A stretch of 64,000 nt of DNA, taken from Eledone cirrhosa. Its lineage: Eukaryota. Under the pieces are notes generated by a model. It was not told the origin of the DNA. It did not search any database and saw nothing but the letters and a program-made list of their open reading frames with translations. The stretch spans positions 252,464,001 through 252,528,000 of the forward strand of contig OZ024743.1 in NCBI GenBank assembly GCA_964016885.1, written 5' to 3'. Positions 5,900-55,928 of the stretch are shown piece after piece. Position 1 is the stretch's first letter, and each line of letters opens with the position of its first letter. The position numbers and the translations under genes were made by a program.

Positions 5900-6300
5900 G
5901 ACCAAAATCTCTGTTAAAGAATGAGTAGGCCAATCGATGATGGCAATTAATTACAATTTCATTGCGATCATTAATTGGGCTAGGCTTGGACATAGATCGC
6001 AATGCCCTTTGTGACCACTGTATAGGGAGGATTTAGCTAAGATATCCCAGACTAAAGAGTATTCGGTATAAGACACCACCAGCTCATTAATATATCTTGA
6101 TAAAGACGTGGTATCTTTTAATATTCTATTCTTAAAGGAATTGATATGGGAATTAAATCGAGTCTTAAATATGTTAGCAGTAGTTCCAATGTACGTTTTT
6201 GTGTCACTTTGGGTGTGAACAGTGCATCTAGATACTACGTTCTTAGTAAGATATCGACCGTCAAGAGGGCAGTTATTACGATTTCTACAATTACAGTTTA
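5900..6300 (-). pseudogene. PLE GIY-YIG endonuclease remnant
   Basis: Manual translation NCNCRNRNNCPLDGRYLTKNVVSRCTV...TYIGTTANIFKTRFNSHINSF...TSLSRYI...WDILAKSSLYSGHKGHCDLC; not present in the ORF track. Confidence 0.88.
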
Positions 6301-7679
6301 ACTGGAGGCAGTGGAGTTAGTAGGTAAGGGGTTAGAAATAGTAAGAGAATTACTTGAAGGAGAGGTGAGAGGGGAGTTAATAGAAGACATACCTAAGTTC
6401 CTTAATAGAAGACATACCTATTAGTATCCAAAGGTTCAAATAGTAGAGGTAGATTAAAACTAAGGGAAGCACGATGCTTATTTAATTTTTTATTGTTACT
6501 AAAAGCGATATGGTCTGCAAGGTTAGAGGTAGTTGAGAAATAAATTTTAATATCATTTTGGGTAAATAATGTATAGTATTTATCATTACGTGGGCAATTG
6601 CTGCGAACGATGGAGAAGAACCTTTTAGGGAGGTTAGACGCCATGCTACGGGAGAACAGAGCATTATGCCAGGAAATATTTCTAGATATTTTACGTTGAC
6701 GAGTACTTCCGGTGCACAGAGGGTTTACAGGTGTATATAGAATATATTTTAAGCTATTATTTGTACTAATGTGTGAATTTTTACTATTGTAGGAAACCAG
6801 TTGGATATCTACTACATTTAATTTTGAACTCATTGCTAGGAGTGGGTAGCAAGCCATTGTTACAAGAAGTCCTGTTCTTTCTATTTCTGTTTTATATCTA
6901 TTATTATTAGAAAGACTAATCTGTGCTGTTACATTATTATTAAGTAAACTCTGGGTAGATAGAACAGTAGGGAGGTAATAAATCTTATCATTATAGCCTG
7001 ATCTGGAAAGACCCTCATTGTAGTACTAAGCTATTTCGTTCTTATGGATCGAATTGTGATTTGACCCTTGAAACAATTGTAAACGAATAAATATTTTTTC
7101 AAGAATTTCGTTGTTTATTCTTCCACTATAATTTAAATTTATATATATATATATATATAAGGGTTTAGATCGATATCCAGTGATTTAAATCTTGTTTACA
7201 ATTTTCTCAACAAATTCATTTGCAGCACACATATAAGATTAATTGTAAGACAACATTTACAGCCAGAAGCCTAATCTACGAGAACAGAGCAATTAACGTA
7301 TCGTAAGATCAACACATGAAAACGTTAAAGTACTCATAATTTAATCTATTGAAACAGCCAGTATCCTCCTAGTTTAGCACATGAAAATCATTCGGAATAC
7401 AAAAATCTATGTCTAAGCTGGTACAGAAGTTTCGAATTATGAGGCGTTTCCATAATCTTAATCTGCCTTGATAAGTTGATATGTGAACATATGAGAAAAT
7501 ATATTGAAGTTGAATTATCCCGATTTCTACATTGGATTAGTGATTCTTATCGCTTATGGTACCTACTACAGTTGATCACGACAGGAAAAACTAGGAAAAG
7601 TAATTTGATGACACGTTCTTCGATTCCATGCTACAAAAATTCACCAATCTAACTAACAGAAACTGGTTACTACTATAAC

Positions 7680-7823
<144 letters not shown>

Positions 7824-8358
7824 ATATACACACATATATATATATATGTATATATAATTTCTATTTGTGTTATTCTCTGAGGAATTTCCTAACATTTAAA
7901 CAAGGCAATCAAATTTTTTGATGTCAAAAGACAAAAATATTGATGAAGAGAACAGATAAAAATGTACATTCAATGCATACACTCCAGATTGCACACACCA
8001 ATACACACTATATACTTACATACATACATACATCAATGCTCAATAATCAATTATTTTACTTATACACACAAAGACAACTATAAAATTCTAATCGTTACAC
8101 AAGCAGGTTTAACACTATGATTAAAGGTTGTAATTGAATCACAAAAGTGTGTGTTTTATGTCAACAAATAAAACATCTTTAATTAAAAATTATGAGATAG
8201 ATCTTTACAAAATAATCAAATAAATACTATTTAACACCTGAAACATAAAAAAAAATCTTGTTATTTTCAATTTATTGAAGTTTTTAATTCAATAATTTGT
8301 TTTTATCTTTTGCTACTGACAATAAATAATGTAGGAAGCAAAACATAAGAAGAGAACG

Positions 8359-8449
<91 letters not shown>
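8359..8449 (+). repeat. (AAT)n tract, left flank/target of the Dong-like LINE
   Basis: About 30 perfect AAT units immediately 5' of the LINE coding sequence. Confidence 0.98.
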
Positions 8450-8453
<4 letters not shown>

Positions 8454-11010
8454 ACTAGGAGGAAAAAGCTAAATATTATCATAGAGGAACTGAAGCAAAG
8501 CATTGTAGCAAAGAGTGCAAAAATCAGGCGATACGAGAACAGGGTCAGCCAGTATAGACAGAACCGCATGTTCGACAACAACCAGAAGATGTTGTTTGGA
8601 CAGCTTGAAAGGAAAGAAAGAGGCAACGACTTGATCCCTGAGGCGGAACAAACTAAAACATTCTGGAGAGGAATATGGGAGCAGGATGTTAAACATAATG
8701 ACCAAGCAGTGTGGATTGAGACAGTACAGAAGGAGATTAGTGAACAGGCACACCAACAAACTGATTTGAGTATCACAGTTGAAACTCTTAAGGGGCAGGC
8801 CAAAAAACTAACCAACTGGAAATCACCAGGCCCAGATGGTGTGCAGGGGTATTGGATTAAAAATATAACATCCCTCCACCCGAAACTGACAACCATGTTC
8901 AATGACTGCTTGATGTCAGGTGAGGTACCAGAGTGGTTGACAAAAGGTACCACAGTTCTGATAATGAAAGACCGAATCAAGGGTAATGATGTTACCAACT
9001 ATAGACCTATCACATGTCTGTCCGTAATGTGGAAACTGTTGACAAGCATTATGTCTGAGGAAATCTACCATCACCTCCACACAAAAAACTTGTTACCGGA
9101 CGAACAGAAAGGATGCCGAAAGAAGTCACGTGGTACAAAGGACCAGTTACTTATTGATAAGATGGTAATGAGGAATTGCAAGAGGAGACACACTGGTCTT
9201 ACCATGGGATGGATAGACTACAAAAAGGCATTTGACATGGTGCCTCATTCTTGGATCACCAAAAGCCTGGAGATCTTCAAGGTGGCAGATAACATCAGAC
9301 AGTTGTTGGGCAAAAGTATGAAGTCCTGGGAAACAGAGTTAACATCAACTGGAGAATCCTTGGGAAGCGTGAAGATCAAGAGAAGTATCTTCCAGGGAGA
9401 TAGTCTGTCCCCTCTGTTGTTTGTCCTTGCCCAGATGCCCCTGACCAGTGTACTGCGTGAGAGCAGGATACAGGTTGGGAAAGGGAGGGCTTACCATCAA
9501 TCACCTCCTCTTCATGGACGATCTTAAGCTCTAAGAGTGAGAAGGAGTTGGATGTGCTTGTTGACACTGTCCGTATTTTCACCAATGATATATGTATGCA
9601 ATTTGATAGTAGTAAGTGTGGAGTCATTGTGATGCAGAGGGGTAAATTGAGCAGAAGCCACGGAATTCAGGTACCAACAGGTGAGATGATAAAGGAAATT
9701 GACTCTGAAGAAGGATACAAGTATTTGGGCGTTCTGGAGGCTGATGACATCAAGAACAAAAAAATGAAGGAATTGATAAGAACTGAATACATTGGGAGAG
9801 TAATGAGCGTATTAAAGTCACATCTGAACAGTAGGAATGCCATAAGTGCAGTAAATTCCCGAGCTGTGGCTATTATTAGGTACAGTGCGGGAATTCTGAG
9901 ATGGAATGTTGCTGAACAGAAAGAAATGGATAGGAAGACTAGGAAGCTATTGACTACCTACAACATGTTCCACAAGAGGAGTGATGTCGATAGACTCTAC
10001 TTAAGGAGATCTGAGGGTGGAAGAGATCTTATCAGCATAGAGGACTGTGTTCAGATGGAGAAAAACAACCTACACAAATACGTGACTGATAGTAAGGAGC
10101 CAATGCTCAGAACTGTACTGAAGGAGGGGACAATAGGCCAGGGGATGTCCAAGGAGGAAATAACATCAAGGAGAAAGAGCAGCCTTCAGGAAAAATCCCT
10201 TCATAGTACCTTCTTTGAGAAAACTGAATTCAGAGATCCACAGACATGGAACTGGTTGAAAAGCGGAGACCTTAAAAAGGCTACAGAAGGAATGTTAATG
10301 GCTGCGCAGGAGCAGGCCCTCAAAACGAAGTGGTTGAAACACCATATTTACAAGGAGGAGGCTAGCCCACTGTGCAGGATCTGTGGAGAGAGAGAGGAGA
10401 CTGTGGCTCACATTGTATAGCCCAGACTCACTATAAGGGCTGGAGACATGATGTGATGGGCAGGGTGATCCACTGGCACCTATGGAAAGTAAACAATTTA
10501 CCACATTCTGAGAAGTGGTATGAGCATAAGTCAGAGGCGGTGATAGAAAACGATCAGGTGAAGGTGCTGTGGGATTTTAGGATACAGACGGACAAGAAAC
10601 TGGAATACAATAGACCTAACCTGGTGGTTGTGGACAAAGAAAAAAGATCGTGCCTGATTGTGGATGTGGCCTGCCCATTCGACACGAGAGTGCAAGTGAA
10701 GGAGAGGGATAAAATTAACCGATACCAGGACTTAAAGTGGGAGGTAAAAAGGATTTGGAACTGCCATGAAGTCAAAGTGATCCCGATTGTCATTGGCGCA
10801 CTGGGGACTATCTCAAAAAGTTTCCAGGGATGGTTAAAGAAAATTGGCCCCTTCACGCTTTTTGGAATGCTTCAAAAGGCATGCTTTCTGGGAACAGCAA
10901 GAACCCTCCGATATGTCCTGAATATCTGAGGCTGCAGGTGGTGGCTTGATATTCATTTCAACAAACTTTCCAGTTAACTAACATCAATGACTGAGACTCA
11001 AAGAGTAATA
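8450..11010 (+). mobile_element. 5'-truncated R4/Dong-like non-LTR retrotransposon (RT + CCHC + restriction-like endonuclease)
   Basis: RT motifs KSPGPDGVQGYWIK, YRPITCL, EQKGC, WIDYKKAFDMVPH, IFQGDSLSPLLF, HLLFMDDLKL, YKYLGV; CRICGEREETVAHI finger; RLE RP(N)LVVVDK...IVDVACP...K..RYQDL; frameshifts near 9465, 9535, 10420; flanked both sides by (AAT)n as is known for Dong. Confidence 0.93.
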
Positions 11011-16500: not shown

Positions 16501-16566
16501 CATATATATGTATAAGAAGTATAAGAATAACAATAAGAAAGATGCTGTGATTCCATAAAGCGTTTA

Positions 16567-16657
16567 TTCATTATAATTATTTCAATGTTTCCCTTATGCA
16601 ATCCAAGATGTAATATATACATTTGTTGCTGGTATGGGAACGATTTCTTCAGATGAA
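16567..16657 (-). ncRNA. Type I hammerhead, long stem II
   Basis: Minus strand TTCAT-CTGAAGA-AATcGTTCCC...GGGAAACATT-GAAA-TAATTAT-A-ATGAA; palindromic stem III ATAATTAT. Confidence 0.75.
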
Positions 16658-16737
16658 ATATTTGTTTATGTGATATGCTTACTGGGCATGTAAGAAGAAC
16701 ATATTTTTTGCCTGCGGCATATCACATGAACGAATAT

Positions 16738-16828
16738 TTTATCTGAAGAAATCGTTCCCATACCAGCAACAAATATAAATACTCCATCACGGATTACATA
16801 AGAGAAACATTGAAATAATTATAATGAA
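16738..16828 (+). ncRNA. Type I hammerhead, long stem II (inverted partner)
   Basis: TTTAT-CTGAAGA (16743)-...-GAAA (16812)-TAATTAT-A (16823)-ATGAA, overlapping AATAAA. Confidence 0.7.
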
Positions 16829-17149
16829 TAAAAACTTCATGTAATCACAGCATCTTTCTGAATGTTATTCTTATACTGAATCTCCATCGTAACTACACAC
16901 TACGAAAATAGAGAGTTTCCTCCTGCTTACTCCTGTTATTTACCAAAACAACTTTTACTGAACATATATATATATATCATTACAATGATCATCATCCAGC
17001 CATAAAAAGCTTGCCAAACAAAGAGTCGGGAAGACCTTCAGTTATGTCAAAGACATGACAATCTCTCATCAGCACTCAGTAGAAGATGAGACTGTAAATA
17101 ATTGAGATGACAGATTCCTGGCTTGTCTTGGCCATCTGAAGTCCCACAT

Positions 17150-21153: not shown

Positions 21154-21277
21154 CAGGTTTATAACTTCCTTTATACCCGCTCTGCTCCTTCTCATGCATA
21201 GAGTACTATCCTGAATTAAAATTTTGCCACTGTATAGTTTCAACATAATTAAATTTATATATATATATATATAAAAT

Positions 21278-22541
21278 TTACTTGTCTAAGACTAAAGTTC
21301 TAATATGTAGGAAGGAGAATAGGGCACTGGTCCCATCTGGGAAATGGCCATGCTCAGTGTGTAGGAAAGGAGTAGGCAGAAACTCCATTGTATGTCCCAA
21401 ATGCAAAGTATGGGTACATAAAAGATGTAGTGGGATCACAGGTAAGCTAACTAAGAATATAGATTTTATATGTGGCCGGTGCTCTGGTGCAATAAGTAGC
21501 AGCAGATGCCCACAGAATACTAGCTTATTCCATTGCCCAGATGGTTCTATAGAAATAGTGGACACCTTACGTTACCTGCGTGACAAAATCAGCAGAGGTG
21601 GAGGGTGCTCTGAAAGTACAGTAGCTAGAGTCCGACCGGGATGGAAAAAGTTCAGAGAGTTTATACCACTATTGGCCGCTAAAGGTTTCTCTCTAAAAAT
21701 GAAAGGCAGGCTGTATGATTCCTGCATACGAACAGCGATGTTACATGGCAGTAAGACATGGGCCTGGTGTGCAGAGGATCTACACAGACTGGAGAGGAAC
21801 GAAGCTTGCATGCACCGTTGGATGTGTAATAGTAATATACGCAAACGGCAAAGCATAAATGAGCTAAGTGCGAAATTAGGAATAAGTGGGATCAGATGCT
21901 GTTTACTCGAGAAGACTACGTTGGTATGGTCATGTGATGCGCATGAAAGACGACAGCTGTATAAAAAAGTGCAGGGCGATCAAAATAGACGGTAGCTACG
22001 GAGTAGGCAGACATAGAAAAACTTGGGACGACTTGATAAATTCCAACCTCACACACTTACACATCTCCAAGACAATGTCACTGGACCGAGATCTTTGGCG
22101 CTACACAGTAATACAGAAGATCCGCCTTGCCTAAGTACAAAGCAAAACCTACAGTCAGTAGGCACCTCTTAACCAAAACACATCCCCGTCCCACTACCCC
22201 TACCCTCACGCTATCTATACCACCCCTTTCGATGTAAAGTTATATTGGTACCACAACATCCAGTCCTAAATAAATGAGATCGCGTAGGTGTCACGACAAA
22301 AAAACACGCAGTCCATGCTGTAATGTGGCCGTGTAGGTAACACGGTAAAAACCTCCCAGTCCACATTATAAACGTGGTTGGTGTTAGGAAGGGCATCCAG
22401 CCATAGAAAACCCACCAGACAGTCCTATATGAGCAAGACAACCAATCTTGCCTCAAGTGGGACAATTCCCGTCCAGACCCATGCTAACGTGGAAGATGGA
22501 CGTTAAACGATGGGGATGATGATGATGATGATGATGATGAT
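21278..22541 (+). mobile_element. RTE-clade LINE 3' part with complete PHD-type finger, 3' UTR and (GAT)n tail
   Basis: KTKVL...CSVC..CPKC..HKRC..CGRC...IVDTLRYL...ARVRPGWKKFRE...RRLRWYGHVMRM...GRHRKTW. Confidence 0.9.
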
Positions 22542-40540: not shown

Positions 40541-40611
40541 TATTTTATCTGATGAGAACGCAAATATCATCCCATGATGATATTTGGTTTTGAAATGCAC
40601 ATAATAAAATA
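40541..40611 (+). ncRNA. Type I hammerhead ribozyme, near intact
   Basis: TATTTTAT-CTGATGA-GAACg CAAATATCATC ccat GATGATATTTG GTTTT-GAAA-TGCACAT-A-ATAAAATA: 8-bp stem I, long stem II, AUA site at 40601-40603. Confidence 0.85.
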
Positions 40612-49501: not shown

Positions 49502-49580
<79 letters not shown>

Positions 49581-49652
49581 TAGTAGAGGAGCGATTGAAT
49601 TGCGTTCAAAGGTGGTATGCCAAGAAAGCATTCTTGGGGAGCAGAGCATAAA

Positions 49653-49835
49653 TAATAATTGTTTCTACTTTTGGCATAAGGCCAGTAATTATCCCAGTAC
49701 ACTACTGGTACTTTATTTTATGGACCCCATAAGGATGAAAGGCAAAGTTAACCTTGGTGTGATTTGAATTAGAATATAAAGGGATGTAACTATGCTGTAA
49801 AGCATGGCATCCGATCCTCTACCGATACTGTCAAA
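49653..49835 (-). mobile_element. tRNA-derived SINE
   Basis: Reverse complement of family consensus. Confidence 0.88.
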
Positions 49836-49861
49836 ATAATAATAAAGAGGAACCACTAATT

Positions 49862-49953
49862 ACATATTACATATGTTTCACTGCCAATCAGCTCGAGGAA
49901 CAATCGAATAATGTCCATTCATGAATCTGGAATCGGAAGCTCCTCAGATATGT
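49862..49953 (-). ncRNA. Type I hammerhead, long stem II (left arm)
   Basis: Reverse complement of 50000-50091; differences confined to distal stem II. Confidence 0.85.
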
Positions 49954-49999
49954 GTTTTCACATGTAGACGCACATCCAAATGTGTCCACATGAGAGAAA

Positions 50000-50091
50000 A
50001 CATATCTGAGGAGCTTCCGATTCCAGATTCAGGAAAGAACATTATTCAATCGTTCCTCGAGCTGATTGGCAGTGAAACATATGTAATATGT
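50000..50091 (+). ncRNA. Type I hammerhead, long stem II (right arm)
   Basis: ACATAT-CTGAGGA-GCTtCCGAT...ATTGGcAGT-GAAA-CATATGT-A-ATATGT: 6-bp stem I, palindromic stem III ACATATGT, GUA site ending 50085. Confidence 0.88.
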
Positions 50092-50157
50092 AATTAAATA
50101 AGTATATGATGCAATACTGATTCTTCGTCATTATTATTATTATTATTATTATTATAA

Positions 50158-50350
50158 GGGCAGTGGATTGGCCGTATCGGTAGAGGGTTGGACGCCATGC
50201 TTTGTAGCATAGAGATACGCCCCTTTACGGCCTGGGTTCAAATCCCACCAAGGTTAACTTTGCCTTCCATCCTTACGGGGTCGATAAAATAAAGCACCAG
50301 TAATACACTGGGATAATTGCTGGCCTAGTGCCAAAAGTAGAAACAATTAT
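50158..50350 (+). mobile_element. Full-length tRNA-derived SINE with (ATT)n tail
   Basis: A-box-like TGGCCGTATCGG, B-box GGTTCAAATCC, family core. Confidence 0.9.
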
Positions 50351-50597: not shown

Positions 50598-52557
50598 ATG
50601 TCGCTGTCGTGCGACAACGACGTAGAAGTTGAGAGGAGCGCTACAGCGAAATTAACACACATTGATAACACAAACACCACCACAAACAATGTAAACAATG
50701 ATACCAATGAGAACTCTAATTTTGAAAAAAATTACAGTAACAGCGACAACGAAAATACAGATAACAAAAAAGAAAATAACAAATACAACAACAATATCAA
50801 CACCACTAACATGAAAACAAATAGCGACAACAGCAACAATACCAACTGCACCGAGAACAACGGTGGCAACAAAGACAACAATGATAACAGCGACAGTGCT
50901 AACAACAACACCAACAAGAACAACGACAACAACACCCCCAACGAAAACAAGAAGAACACTGTCGCTGTGGCAGCAGCAAAAAAAGAGGCCTTGCTTCAAC
51001 ATGGACCTCTCAAACAAAGATGAAAAGTTGGCCCAGGCATGGAAGCTCATCAAGCAAGAGCAAACTTGGGCCAACTTAACTGTCCCGGTAGAAGCTATTG
51101 AGGCAGTGGAGCGCAGAACGGTGCATTATAGATGCATCTCGGCACAAACCAAAAGGGCAGCTTTAATCCCACAAGAAGATGTCGAAGTCGCGCTGAGGTG
51201 CATCAGAGAAGACACCCAGTACATAGAGAGGGGCAGACAGTACGGCACCATTTCGGTGTTGTTCAAGTCAGAAGCCCTCGCTATGAAACACGCTATGACT
51301 CCTTGCAAAACCAGCAAGGTCATAATGTACCCCTCCCACATGGGAAAAAGAACAGCCCGTCTCCGCATTTTCCCAGAATCCCACCAGGACTTGACATGTG
51401 GTGGCTTCTGGGATGTGTGATTGTGGAGGGGACGGATACAGTCCCTATAGAAGTGACCAGAACGGCCAGAGAGGACTGGTCCGGGGTTGACCTGGAGATC
51501 CTTCTCGAGATCAGGCCCGAGAATGTGAAGACAATCCCGGACCACATCCGCCTTCACAATGGGACTGTCATTCACATTATGACCGAAGGCAAAAGGCCAC
51601 AGTGTTTTGTTTGTCGGGATAAAACCCATTTGCGAGCCTTCTGCCCTCAACTTCTGAAAGAGGCAAGGGGTAGAAAGGCTCCACTGCTGCCGACGCCGGG
51701 GCGAGGGCCACAACCAACCCCAGCACCGGCAAAACCACCAACAACAACACCAATAGAAAGACCACCACCAACATTGACCACCCAGGGGGGAAACGAGGAA
51801 AGCTGTCAAATTCCCCCCCCCCCCCCAAATACACACACCAATAAAACCATAAACATACATACAGACACACTTACAGACACAGACCCCTCATCTACCAGTA
51901 GTGAAAATGAGGGAAATCCCAAATCCCCCAAAATACAGAAAAGGAAACACAAAAAGAAAAAAAAAACTCAACAATGCACAAAAGCACCAACAATAAAAAA
52001 CGCAGACACCACCCACGCAAACATCTCTCCAATAAGACCACCATCAAGACCACCATCACCATCACCAGAATCCCCCAAACGCAAACAACTGAAACAGACG
52101 CAAGAACAAATATACACACAAACATCTGAAACCACAGACACCGCACTCACAACAAACACAGATACAACCGAAACAACACCACCAAAACCATCACCACCAC
52201 AGCCATGCACACAAATACAATCACACCAACAAAACATACAAAACTTCGTGCTCGTCAGGAGGGCCAACAAGGAACTGATGGCCCTCGTAGCACGAAGTGA
52301 AAATATACAAAAAGAGGGGGAATTCTTAAATCGAGCACATTTCCCGTGCCGGAAGATTTGGTTCTGGTGCGAATGTCGCTCGACATATTCAAAGAAATAC
52401 AAGACAGCTTTCCTCGGGACGTGGGAACCCCGAACGTAAAATGCACTTCAAGACTTTTAAAGGGGTTCCCAAAAGAAACCACACTAACTATGGAGGTCGA
52501 ACAACCCGACCTTCATAGAGCCCGGAAGGTAAGTAAACCCTCCTCACTCTCTGTTTA
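50598..52557 (+). pseudogene. Tx1 ORF1 (gag-like, CCHC knuckle, Asn- and Pro/Thr-rich low-complexity segments), frameshifted
   Basis: Pieced from ORFs 50598, 50863, 51132 and 52346. Confidence 0.8.
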
Positions 52558-52567
52558 ACCTGCCAAC

Positions 52568-55500
52568 ATGGCCGTAATAAGTGTACGATGTTTAAAAGTT
52601 CGAGGCCTGGGATCGTCCTGGAAGCAGGGTCACCTGCTCAACGACCTCAGGTCTATAGAAATGGATGTTATTGCAGTCAGTGAGACCAGGATTTCCGACA
52701 CGCGTGCACTAGCCCCCATTTTCGACGACGATCAGATATTTGCATCTGTTAGCCGGCCGGGAATGGGAGGCGAGGTGGCAGTGCTGTTTAAGAAAGGCCT
52801 GGATCTCGAGGTAAGGTCGATCTTCCGGGACCCGGACGGGAGGTTGGTGGTCCTGGAAGTTAACAATAATGAAGGTGGTGCCTTTAGACTGGTGGCCGTC
52901 TATGCTCCTACTGGGGCAGGACGGCCGGACTTCTTTAGACGCCTGGAAGCCTTTCTGGGTACGTCTCGCCCTTTACTGTTAGCGGGGGACTGGAATGTCA
53001 TCTTAGACGCATGCTGAGACTGTGTGGGAGTATCCGATAGGAGCGGGGTGTGCAAAAGCCTCAAGAACCTGATCAGCCAGTTCCTACTGTCTGACAGGTA
53101 CCGACTAGATTTCCCTAATGCGCCAGTGTGGACCTGGGCTAACCGCATAGCGTCATCTAGATCGTATATAGATAGGATATTCATTAGGAAAATAGACAGA
53201 AATAGTGTAAGCTGTCCACGTTTTGAAAAGGTCGCCTATTCAGATCACAAGTTTGTGATCTGTATGGTCGACCTAGATAAGACGCGTAGGTTAGGACCTG
53301 GTTACTGGAAGCTAAACATGTCATTTCCGGCACGTAAGGCTTACAGGGACTACGTCAACAATTTTGTTAAGAAAAGGTTGACAGGGCGAGTCGTCAACAA
53401 TAGATGGTGGGGGGCTCTCAAAAGAGAGATTAGAGTAATGTCGATAGAGTTCAGCAAAGAAGTAGCATTAGAGAAAAATAGAAAGGAGGGGGAGTTGGTA
53501 AATAAGTTAGACGAGGCTATTGGTAGTGGCATTGCAACTGATGTGCTAGCGGCGAGAATGGCATTAGACCATTTCTTCAATGCGAAACACGAAGCTTGCA
53601 TTGTAAGAGCTAAGGCGCGTTCTCTGAGAAACGAGGGAACCAAAGCTGTTCGATGGGCCCGAGTGGCAGGGGCGCAGAGTGGTAATAAAACCACAATTCG
53701 GTCTTTGACGGACCGAGACGGGCACGAGCTGAACGATTCCAAGAGGATGCGTGAGGCCTTTCGCCAACATTTTGCTCGGTTGTTCGGGGGAAGTGGCGGG
53801 TCAGAGATGGTGGCGGACTTCAGTCCCTACCTCGATGGCTTGCCGCAACTCTCGACGGCTGACGGTGGGTGCTGCGAAAGGCCAATTACTTCAGCCGAGA
53901 ATCAGGATGCCGTTGTCGGCTGCATGATGCGCAAGTCACCTGGTTTGGATGGTCTGTCCTACGAGCTTTACGTAAATATGCCAGACTTGTACTCCAATCT
54001 CCTCGAAGCCCTCTACTGCCGCAAAATGGGAGAATTCCCAGTTCTGTGAGCCGGGGCGTAGTGACGCTGATAAGGAAAGACGAGAACAAGAGTTTAAGAT
54101 TTTGGCCAGGGTGTTAGCGAAGAGGTTGGCGCTTGTCGTCGGGGATTTGGTTGGAGAGGCGCAAACTTGCGCAATACCAAGGAGGTCCATACACGACAAC
54201 CTCCACCTAATGCGATACATCATAGAGAGGGTAGGGTATAAACCTGGCTTCGGTGGGGCTCTGATCAATTTAGATCAATCGAAATCATTCGATAGGGCCT
54301 ACCATCGGTACCTGGAGGCTGTCCTCAAGGCGGCTGGCTTCGGCCCCGTCTTCAGAAGCTGGATCGCTGCAATGCACAGCGGCACCTGCTCGATGGTCAA
54401 AATTAATGGCCAACTTTCGGAATCGTTTTAGGTCTCCCGATCGGTCCGTCAAGGGTGCCCTCTCTCCTCCCTTCTGTACGTATTGACTCTCGAGCCTTTA
54501 CTGCGGAAGCTGGAGCTGTTGCAGGGCATCCCGCTCTAACGGGCTCTGTCGGCTTATGCGGACGACATCACCGTGATGGTGTCGGACACCTCAGAAATAG
54601 AGGGGGTCGGCAACTTATTGGAGGAATATGAAAGGTTGACAGGAGCAAAACTTAACCCGAAAAAGTCAGTGGGCTTGCAACTCGGCACCTGGAGAGGCAA
54701 GTCCATACCATCCAACAGCGTCGTTAGGCGCTGGACGGACCGGTAAAGTTGCTAGGGGTTTGGTTCGGGCCAGACCTCCAGGTGGATAAGAATTGGGACG
54801 AGGTGACAGGCAGGGTAGTCAGTCTCACCCAGAAATGGGCTGGGATGAAGCTATCACTGAAAGGTCGGGCGGAGGTGGCGAAAGCGTACATTGCGTCCGT
54901 CATCTACTACCGTCTGACTGTCGTCCCTTGCCCCTGTTCACGCCTCGCCATCTTGGAGCAGCTCCTCTTCAAATTCTTGCGGAGGGGTCAGGTTCTGCTG
55001 GTGAGGCGGTCCATCTGCTGCCAGCACCCTCTACGTGGAGGGCTGGGCATGCCATGGCTAATGATGCGAAGGCACGCGCTGAGGCTGCGGCATCTCCAGA
55101 TATTCTGCCTAAACGGTGAACAGGTGTGGTCGCCGTTTGTCAGGCGGGCCTTTCCACAGTTCGTTTCTTTGACTGAGCTGCAGTCCTGTGTCAAGAAGAG
55201 ACCGAGACTGGGTGACTGGCATCTGGAATGTTGCCAGGCACTCACTGCCCTCTACCAGGCGGGCAATGCGATCAGTGGAACTTCCACTCTCGAGTTCTAT
55301 AGAGGATTAGTGGTGGCCAAGTGCGACGACGCACTCGGAGAGGCTCTGGGAGTCAACGAAGTCGAACTAACCAGTCTGTACCAGAGGACTTTCGAGCCGG
55401 GGACGATGGATAATTTCCAAGGAATCCCTCGCTTTGCAGTGCTACTAGGGGGCACTGCCGGTTCGAGATAAACTCTACAGGCACGGAAGTGCTGTCAGAC

Positions 55501-55928
55501 GCACCCGCCCCAGATGCGCGCAGAGCGACGAAACTGTTCTGCATGCACTTGCCCAGTGTCCGTGCATTACTGACTTGTGGAGTTATGTTGAACAGCTGTT
55601 GTCGCGTGTAGAACGAATCCGGCTATCGGCCGAGTCCATAGTGAAGATCGACCCGCCACCTTCTTTTGGCCAGGAAGGGCAGGCAATTTTCCTCTGTCTT
55701 GTGGCAGTAGCGAAAGAGGTTGTATGGTGGACGAGGTTGAAAGGACTGAAGACAGACACTTTTCTCTTCGGCCAATCCCTCATCAACTTTTTCAAGTTTC
55801 ACTTGGAAAGGAAGGTGAGGGTGGAGAGAGAAGTGCTGCCCCCCCCCCCCAGTACATTTGCTGAAAGGTGGGTGAATGTGGCGAGAATGGCCCGTGTGAG
55901 TGGGCCTACTCTGGTCATGCGGCTGTAG
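52568..55928 (+). pseudogene. Tx1 ORF2 (AP endonuclease + reverse transcriptase + zinc finger), disrupted
   Basis: Pieced from ORFs 52568, 53024, 54102, 54749, 55575; stops, frameshifts and a deletion near 54090. Confidence 0.9.

Follow-up and report, generated by a model that had tools for sequence, protein, structure and literature searches.

We consider it very probable that a hairpin with two hammerhead motifs in the genome of Eledone cirrhosa consists of two 5′-truncated pLTRs of a Hydra-clade PLE arranged head to head, left as a likely dead by-product of a single insertion. The hairpin lies in a stretch of 64,000 nucleotides that was analysed as a whole (the window), and a preliminary description had proposed two possible origins for it. 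One of these, an extremely truncated fold-back PLE insertion, is supported by the varied junctions of related copies, by a quartet test on their arms and by long copies that carry a PLE ORF. The other, a self-contained MITE-like or viroid-like element, finds no support in our data, given that the junctions differ and that the quartet test gave 0 unit sites for the pair of loci that share the junction of this hairpin.

The rod-like hairpin itself is real, as had been claimed. Its arms are complementary at 106 of 116 positions (91%), leaving 10 differences in 116, and none of 100 shuffled sequences was as stable as its predicted fold (-177.9 kcal/mol, z -27.7). Several boundaries of the element are better placed elsewhere, and the corrected ones are collected in Table 1. 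For instance, the loop, described as having about 4 nt, has 8 nt in the homologous register, and 4 nt would require a 2-nt slip. Likewise, the 33-nt stretch taken for an unpaired extension is normal family sequence, which is unpaired because the left arm has lost the matching segment of about 30 nt. The segment is present on both arms in 29 of 34 fold-back loci, and, despite its loss, the left arm retains the family end, GTTCC followed by an ATT run. The element is also longer than the 240 nt first assigned to it, as the left arm resumes past a SINE-like repeat in a tail of about 80 nt and ends at (TA)n. No target-site duplication is discernible at the insertion, whose ends sit in (TA)n and in (ATT)n/SINE.

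Table 1. Features of the hairpin locus, in positions of the window
Feature	Positions	Strand	Remarks
(TA)n microsatellite at the long (tailed) end	49506-49578		Likely insertion target; other copies' tailed arms also finish in (TA)n
pLTR tail of the left arm (~80 nt), about +62 to +141 from the hammerhead cut	49580-49659	-	Match to natural copy L085, positions +53 to +150
SINE-like repeat inside the left arm's ATT run	49660-49834	-	Many copies in the window; same interruption at L042
Left-arm family end (GTTCC + ATT run) after internal deletion of ~30 nt	49835-49856	-	Comparison with other copies
Left arm: 5′-truncated pLTR; type I hammerhead motif 49862-49953, predicted cut after 49868	49857-49972	-	
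8-nt loop of family sequence; the left arm extends further 5′ than the right arm	49973-49980	-	Junction identical at G000:C18:28110875
Right arm: 5′-truncated pLTR; type I hammerhead motif 50000-50091 (core 50006-50012, GAAA 50074-50077), predicted cut after 50085	49981-50096	+	
Family sequence +12 to +44, unpaired only through left-arm loss	50097-50129	+	
(ATT)n run, short end of the insertion	50130-50155	+	23 of 29 copies stop at +46 to +61
Second SINE-like repeat, after the ATT run	50158-50345	+	84% identical to the left one, a family-level value

The two repeats next to the ATT runs are presumably SINEs, and ARAGORN found no tRNA in the SINE-like repeat. We considered this flanking pair as a possible outer inverted repeat of the element and rejected it, since their identity is at family level and the left SINE separates the arm from its own tail. 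As a separate observation, the SINE-like repeat has entered the ATT run of the pLTR repeatedly, on both sides of the hairpin and at many other loci, which suggests a shared ATT target.

Each arm contains one hammerhead, and the motif scan bears out the composition given in the preliminary description. The two type I motifs have opposite polarity, with CUGAGGA at 50006 (+) and 49947 (-), and each comprises a 6-bp stem I, a 61-nt stem II region, GAAA, a palindromic stem III and a GUA triplet. Both possess the sequence features that define the type (CUGANGA, GAAA, NUH and stems I-III), and cleavage is only predicted. Rfam reported no hammerhead match and only generic miRNA-hairpin scores far under the gathering cut-offs, and the hammerhead fold of a single arm lies 2.3 kcal/mol above an alternative register. 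It had been stated, too, that the differences between the arms avoid the core and stems I and III. This is true of all 10, but the weight of the observation is reduced by the 0.038 hypergeometric chance of finding no difference in the 31 core and stem I/III positions, and by the resemblance of three of the differences to CpG decay. Elsewhere in the window, a third and single type I hammerhead motif (40541-40610, with CUGAUGA at 40549 and an 8-bp stem I) belongs to another repeat, and a similar sequence occurs in the flank of locus L079.

Across the family, the ribozyme core decays like the flanking DNA, which fits neutral decay. When 125 arms were compared in non-CpG, low-variation columns, the mismatch rates were 3.9% in the core, 3.7% in stem I and 4.5% in the 3′ flank, while the CpG columns of these arms had 17% mismatches. 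For 16 arms obtained with an upstream query, the corresponding values were 4.2% in the core (6.3% unfiltered) versus 5.0% in the 3′ flank. The core motif is intact in 78 of the 117 arms that cover it (38/61 hairpin arms and 40/56 other arms), and 12 of 27 hairpins have kept it intact on both arms.

Both arms represent the 3′ end (pLTR) of a repeat that is dispersed in the genome, with over 2,000 candidate copies. Our searches covered the species' own 3.0-Gb genome, and their figures are candidate counts, not copy numbers. The one-arm query found 2237 candidates, of which the best 40 were scored, and an inverted partner matching that query was present in 3 of 29 other best copies. The counts were 1448 with a query of 77 nt around the cut, 108 with 231 nt upstream and 11 with a stretch further up; most copies are short stumps, and a few long ones reach an ORF. 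Walking upstream from the arm, we found a T-rich UTR and then coding sequence, so that longer copies of the family carry an RT and C-terminal GIY-YIG ORF that is absent at the window hairpin. For example, locus L110 (G000:C2:354896000-354903000, minus strand) contains, in order, a short inverted arm, a direct copy of the tail, the ORF, the T-rich UTR, an arm that is 86% identical to that of the window, and the tail again. The tail region of its pLTR matches itself at both ends (92% over 103 nt) and so occurs both ahead of the ORF, whose ATG lies about 42 nt after the direct copy of the tail module, and at the 3′ end. The RT, linker and GIY-YIG frames of L110 are broken by stops and frameshifts, and they are colinear with the intact 861-aa ORF of locus L141, with 44-61% identity over the RT, thumb, linker and endonuclease. 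None of 16 ORF-bearing loci combines an intact ORF with the exact pLTR of the window, and seven of them have arms about 70% identical to it.

In domain searches with these ORFs, Pfam named no RT: five of six ORF fragments gave weak unrelated matches only, the sixth gave none, and three whole ORFs returned nothing. The GIY-YIG piece matched PF01541 with an E value of 0.002, below the cut-off, and a PDB sequence search gave nothing meaningful. The PLE ORFs contain the YRDD motif, and GIY-YIG is found in their Atlas neighbours, some clusters of which also have RVT_1; the homologues listed (n = 50) are almost all unnamed. The window itself holds other retrotransposon remains, such as decayed PLE ORF fragments at 5960-7151 (-) that match the L141 protein (E about 1e-10), and open frames at 8349-10929, 51132-55928 and 21249-21995 that resemble LINE-type retrotransposons, as judged from their translations.

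The motifs of the ORF point to the Hydra clade of endonuclease-bearing PLEs, an assignment made from these motifs and from a published supplementary alignment compared by eye, rather than from a tree. According to the available sections of Craig et al. (2021, PMC8557442), the clade is defined by RW[RK], DKT, CxCx5C and CxxC/CxH, without CCHH. We found the CxCx5C linker in L110, L113 and L141-143, an RW[RK]-like motif in L129, L141 and L142 (decayed in L110), DKT in L129 and L141-143, and CxxC and CxH in L141 and L143, while CCHH is absent. The likeness to the clade, which in those sections includes Hydra-1_Obim of Octopus bimaculoides, extends to the C-terminal GIY-YIG, the placement of CxxC/CxH around a conserved E and N, a canonical hammerhead near the 3′ end and the target, (TA)n being a published target of Hydra PLEs (PMC8557442). 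In the window and in most copies inspected, by eye and uncounted, the tailed ends run into (TA)n. The Hydra alignment in the available supplement agrees with the window family motif by motif, again by eye. The hammerheads differ: the one listed for Hydra-1_Obim is built from different stems, and its stem II is short, compared with the 61-nt region of the window family, and the hammerhead motifs of the window do not appear in the available supplementary material of that paper. The label "Neptune-like", which we also considered, was dropped in view of the published clade definitions. We also noted open frames of 847-893 aa in Hydra-type PLEs at three loci (L141:1514-4096, L142:2906-5584 and L143:1537-4077), and an RT query yielded 19,596 candidates, so the Hydra-type clade is abundant in this genome. 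Few Hydra families have been reported outside cnidarians, as far as the same source indicates (PMC8557442).

Of the 40 best-scored places for a whole-hairpin query, which selects for size, 4 are single arms and 36, that of the window among them, are fold-backs that measure 217-251 nt; we analysed 34 hairpins, leaving out two tandem duplicates of a third. A tail, meaning sequence past +69, is found on exactly one arm in 32 of the 34, on both arms in 0 and on neither in 2. Among the 32, three are marginal (+69 to +76), and two, including that of the window, are split by a SINE. If the arms were independent, hand arithmetic would predict about 7 double-tailed loci. The hairpins thus have the form expected of PLEs, that is, an inverted 5′-truncated copy with a tail at one end only. 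Two alternative 3′ ends are seen in family copies in general, which stop either in the ATT run (Table 1) or, in 6 of 29, at about +141, where (TA)n follows.

The 5′ ends are similarly clustered. In 29 copies, with ends defined by BLAST, 19 begin at -78 to -116 from the cut, 4 at -39 to -49 and 6 beyond -116; two of them reach further by eye, and 10 of the 29 loci were already in the one-arm set. Our preferred cause for this pile-up just upstream of the ribozyme is a transcript start, and a live alternative is microhomology between a TA/TG/CA-like stretch and the microsatellite targets. As a side observation, a sister subfamily (L052-L059 and L061-L067) has a different sequence upstream of about -106 and junctions at the same distance from the ribozyme, in a set selected by the query.

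Two routes from a single insertion to such a hairpin can be proposed, and the data do not separate them. We lean slightly towards the joining of two cDNAs. The endonuclease would nick both strands of an AT-rich microsatellite, and the two 3′ ends would prime cDNA synthesis at two internal sites, the ATT run and the end of the tail, on the same element RNA or on sibling RNAs from one source. Both cDNAs would extend to some 80-115 nt upstream of the hammerhead cut and halt there, perhaps where the RNA begins, after which their far ends might be joined by microhomology or filler, and the opposite-polarity hammerheads would be mere passengers. Afterwards, the copy would have decayed neutrally, its left arm would have lost about 30 nt, and a SINE would have entered at each of the two ATT runs. 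We base two-site priming on the behaviour of a Poseidon PLE, which in vitro cleaves both strands at ATT and extends each of them, its tail being set by two internal RT start sites, according to the available text of Frangieh et al. (2024, PMC11167929).

The second route, which is credible but which we favour less, is self-priming, in which a short microhomology close to the 3′ end of a single cDNA lets it fold back and copy itself, before it is joined at the ATT run to the other end of the target. It would account for the loop of the window, a piece of plain family sequence that about 3 paired letters close and that is seen again at the C18 locus, and it has been proposed for junction palindromes in the part of Arkhipova et al. 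(2013, PMC3846280) available to us. Rare alleles common to both arms of a locus (mean 0.72 per locus versus 0.08 between loci) are explained equally well by self-priming and by the joining of two cDNAs. Against self-priming, inspection by eye shows the loop on the tailed arm at some loci and on the short arm at others, several junctions contain filler, and a Poseidon PLE extends both target strands in vitro. Going beyond the joining of two cDNAs at this locus, we tentatively suggest that stumps of this kind record how Hydra-clade elements insert, a proposal that we hold to be doubtful as a whole. RT would start at two fixed sites about 80-90 nt apart, one per nicked strand, and run off where the transcript begins, about 100-115 nt upstream of the cut, and the smallest two-armed product would therefore be a rod with two complete opposite ribozymes. 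Stumps of ribozyme size may, in addition, be re-transcribed and re-mobilised in trans as a hammerhead-bearing SINE-like class.

An important question is whether the hairpins were made independently or whether the hairpin is a non-autonomous (MITE- or SINE-like) unit amplified whole via PLE proteins, which we find very unlikely. Amplification would agree with the predominance of fold-backs of similar size among the best 40 places, with the clustering of 5′ ends at -78 to -116 and with the existence of one locus that has the same junction, but the query itself selected for that size. The preliminary description had contrasted a loop junction shared by many copies, as in an amplified unit, with variable junctions, as in independent truncations, and the genome search answers in favour of the latter. 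The 34 hairpins differ in their junctions, with loops, fillers and overlaps of varied length, and that of the window recurs only at the C18 locus in a junction-pattern search that allowed 1 mismatch in 32 letters, a lower bound in which diverged copies are undercounted. Even this pair appears to have been built independently. In a quartet test, amplification of a unit predicts that tailed arms group across loci, and the comparison of the window with C18 gave 7 within-locus sites, 0 unit sites and 1 crossed site. Over the 496 pairs of the 32 one-tailed hairpins, 448 grouped within loci, 7 as units and 9 crosswise, with 32 ties. Similarly, the identity between the arms of a locus exceeds the median identity to other arms in 29 of 31 loci, and it exceeds that to the best other arm in only 6. 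Within-locus grouping could also result if amplified hairpins had undergone gene conversion between their arms. The many copies with one junction and a single hairpin ancestor that would mark a MITE-like element were not found among these loci. Separately, L038, L039 and L046 (G000:C7:57.255-57.257 Mb) are three hairpin copies with one junction in a local tandem/inverted array, which resembles local duplication.

The size range of fold-backs also argues against an amplified unit. When all sizes are included, inverted partners measure about 20-260 nt and main arms up to 2.5 kb (L111); these lengths form a continuum, and the two-ribozyme rod is therefore one slice of it. Of 29 copies retrieved with a 3′ query, 6 have an inverted partner visible to BLAST, and in 1 both arms cover the ribozyme. 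The absence of a visible partner from most single-arm copies counts against our explanation. A motif scan for very short inverted partners found at least 7 in 48, a lower bound, as it missed partners known from BLAST. The description had expected simple truncation debris to have a different inversion point in every copy and to extend into a coding PLE: inversion points do differ, one pair excepted, and longer copies do reach a coding PLE, but not every copy does.

Given that the rod carries two intact motifs of opposite polarity, it could be imagined as a viroid-like RNA whose two hammerheads would process the strands of either polarity as the RNA replicates, a likeness in architecture that we give next to no credence as an explanation. 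With one hammerhead per strand and no tandem repeat at the locus, there is a single cut site per strand and therefore no unit-length monomer could be released. In addition, the antisense arm would be transcribed first, and the rod (-170.3 kcal/mol) far outweighs the fold with hammerhead stems enforced (-48.6 kcal/mol), so that co-transcriptional cleavage at 50085 is predicted to be blocked. The rod is, in contrast to viroid-like RNAs, a plain inverted duplication predicted to sequester its ribozyme, and the cores are not conserved among copies; in the C18 copy, the core of one arm is broken. A related comparison can be made with animal non-LTR retrozymes, which are likewise short, non-coding and PLE-related, with a type I hammerhead, but which are direct tandems according to the available part of a recent preprint (bioRxiv 10.64898/2026.07.22.740005); the window locus has a single inverted pair and no direct tandem units, and therefore no cleavage to monomers would occur. 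We hold it to be just as improbable that fold-back reads produced the mirror image as an artefact of assembly. No short-read contig among those listed spans the junction, but the two arms are told apart by a deletion and by differences at 10 of 116 sites, and 33 other such loci exist. Exact matches to 49878-49951 and 50002-50077 are also found among the short-read contigs of X1, a run that may come from the source sample itself.

Both inverted pLTRs and nearby opposite-strand hammerheads have already been published, and what we describe is a new family whose clade and arrangement are both known already. Inverted 5′-truncated PLE copies with a one-sided tail of 30-40 bp and microsatellite targets appear in the accessible sections of PMC8557442, and inverted copies also in those of PMC3846280. 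The hairpin of the window shares with the inverted pLTRs of Arkhipova et al., Craig et al. (Fig. 2) and Frangieh et al., as far as these sources were available, the head-to-head orientation, the palindromic junction, the extension of one arm and an AT-rich or ATT target. It differs in that both of its arms are stumps without an ORF between them and in its tail of about 80 nt versus 30-40 bp. Cervera and de la Pena (2014, PMC4209133), in the portion accessible to us, reported dual minimal hammerheads on opposite strands, 100-700 bp apart, in Schistosoma mansoni. These resemble our pair in their proximity and orientation, in the type I fold with a small palindromic stem III and in a genome full of truncated PLEs; for the window hairpin, on the other hand, the origin has been traced to a named clade, and its junctions, tail and independent origin have been tested. 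Our literature search, which covered sources outside subscription papers and Repbase, found no description of the PLE family of the window or of a tail of about 80 nt. The details that are new, both of them minor, are the length of the tail, about double the published 30-40 bp, and the pile-up of 5′ ends just upstream of the ribozyme.

The window contains a second head-to-head hammerhead pair, from an unrelated family, at 16545-16860, with CUGAAGA cores at 16652 (-) and 16743 (+) and a 62-nt stem II region. Among its 865 candidates in the genome, several are fold-backs whose junctions differ from one another, and the phenomenon is therefore not specific to one family.

The hairpin is not a new kind of element, then, but ordinary transposon debris of a kind that was likely produced afresh at each insertion. 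That retrotransposon debris can repeatedly take the form of a genomic "ambisense double-hammerhead rod" calls for caution when DNA is searched for viroid-like elements. In the case of the Hydra clade, which has been little studied, the rule of one long and one short end, together with the pile-up of 5′ ends, provides predicted RT starts and a predicted transcript start.
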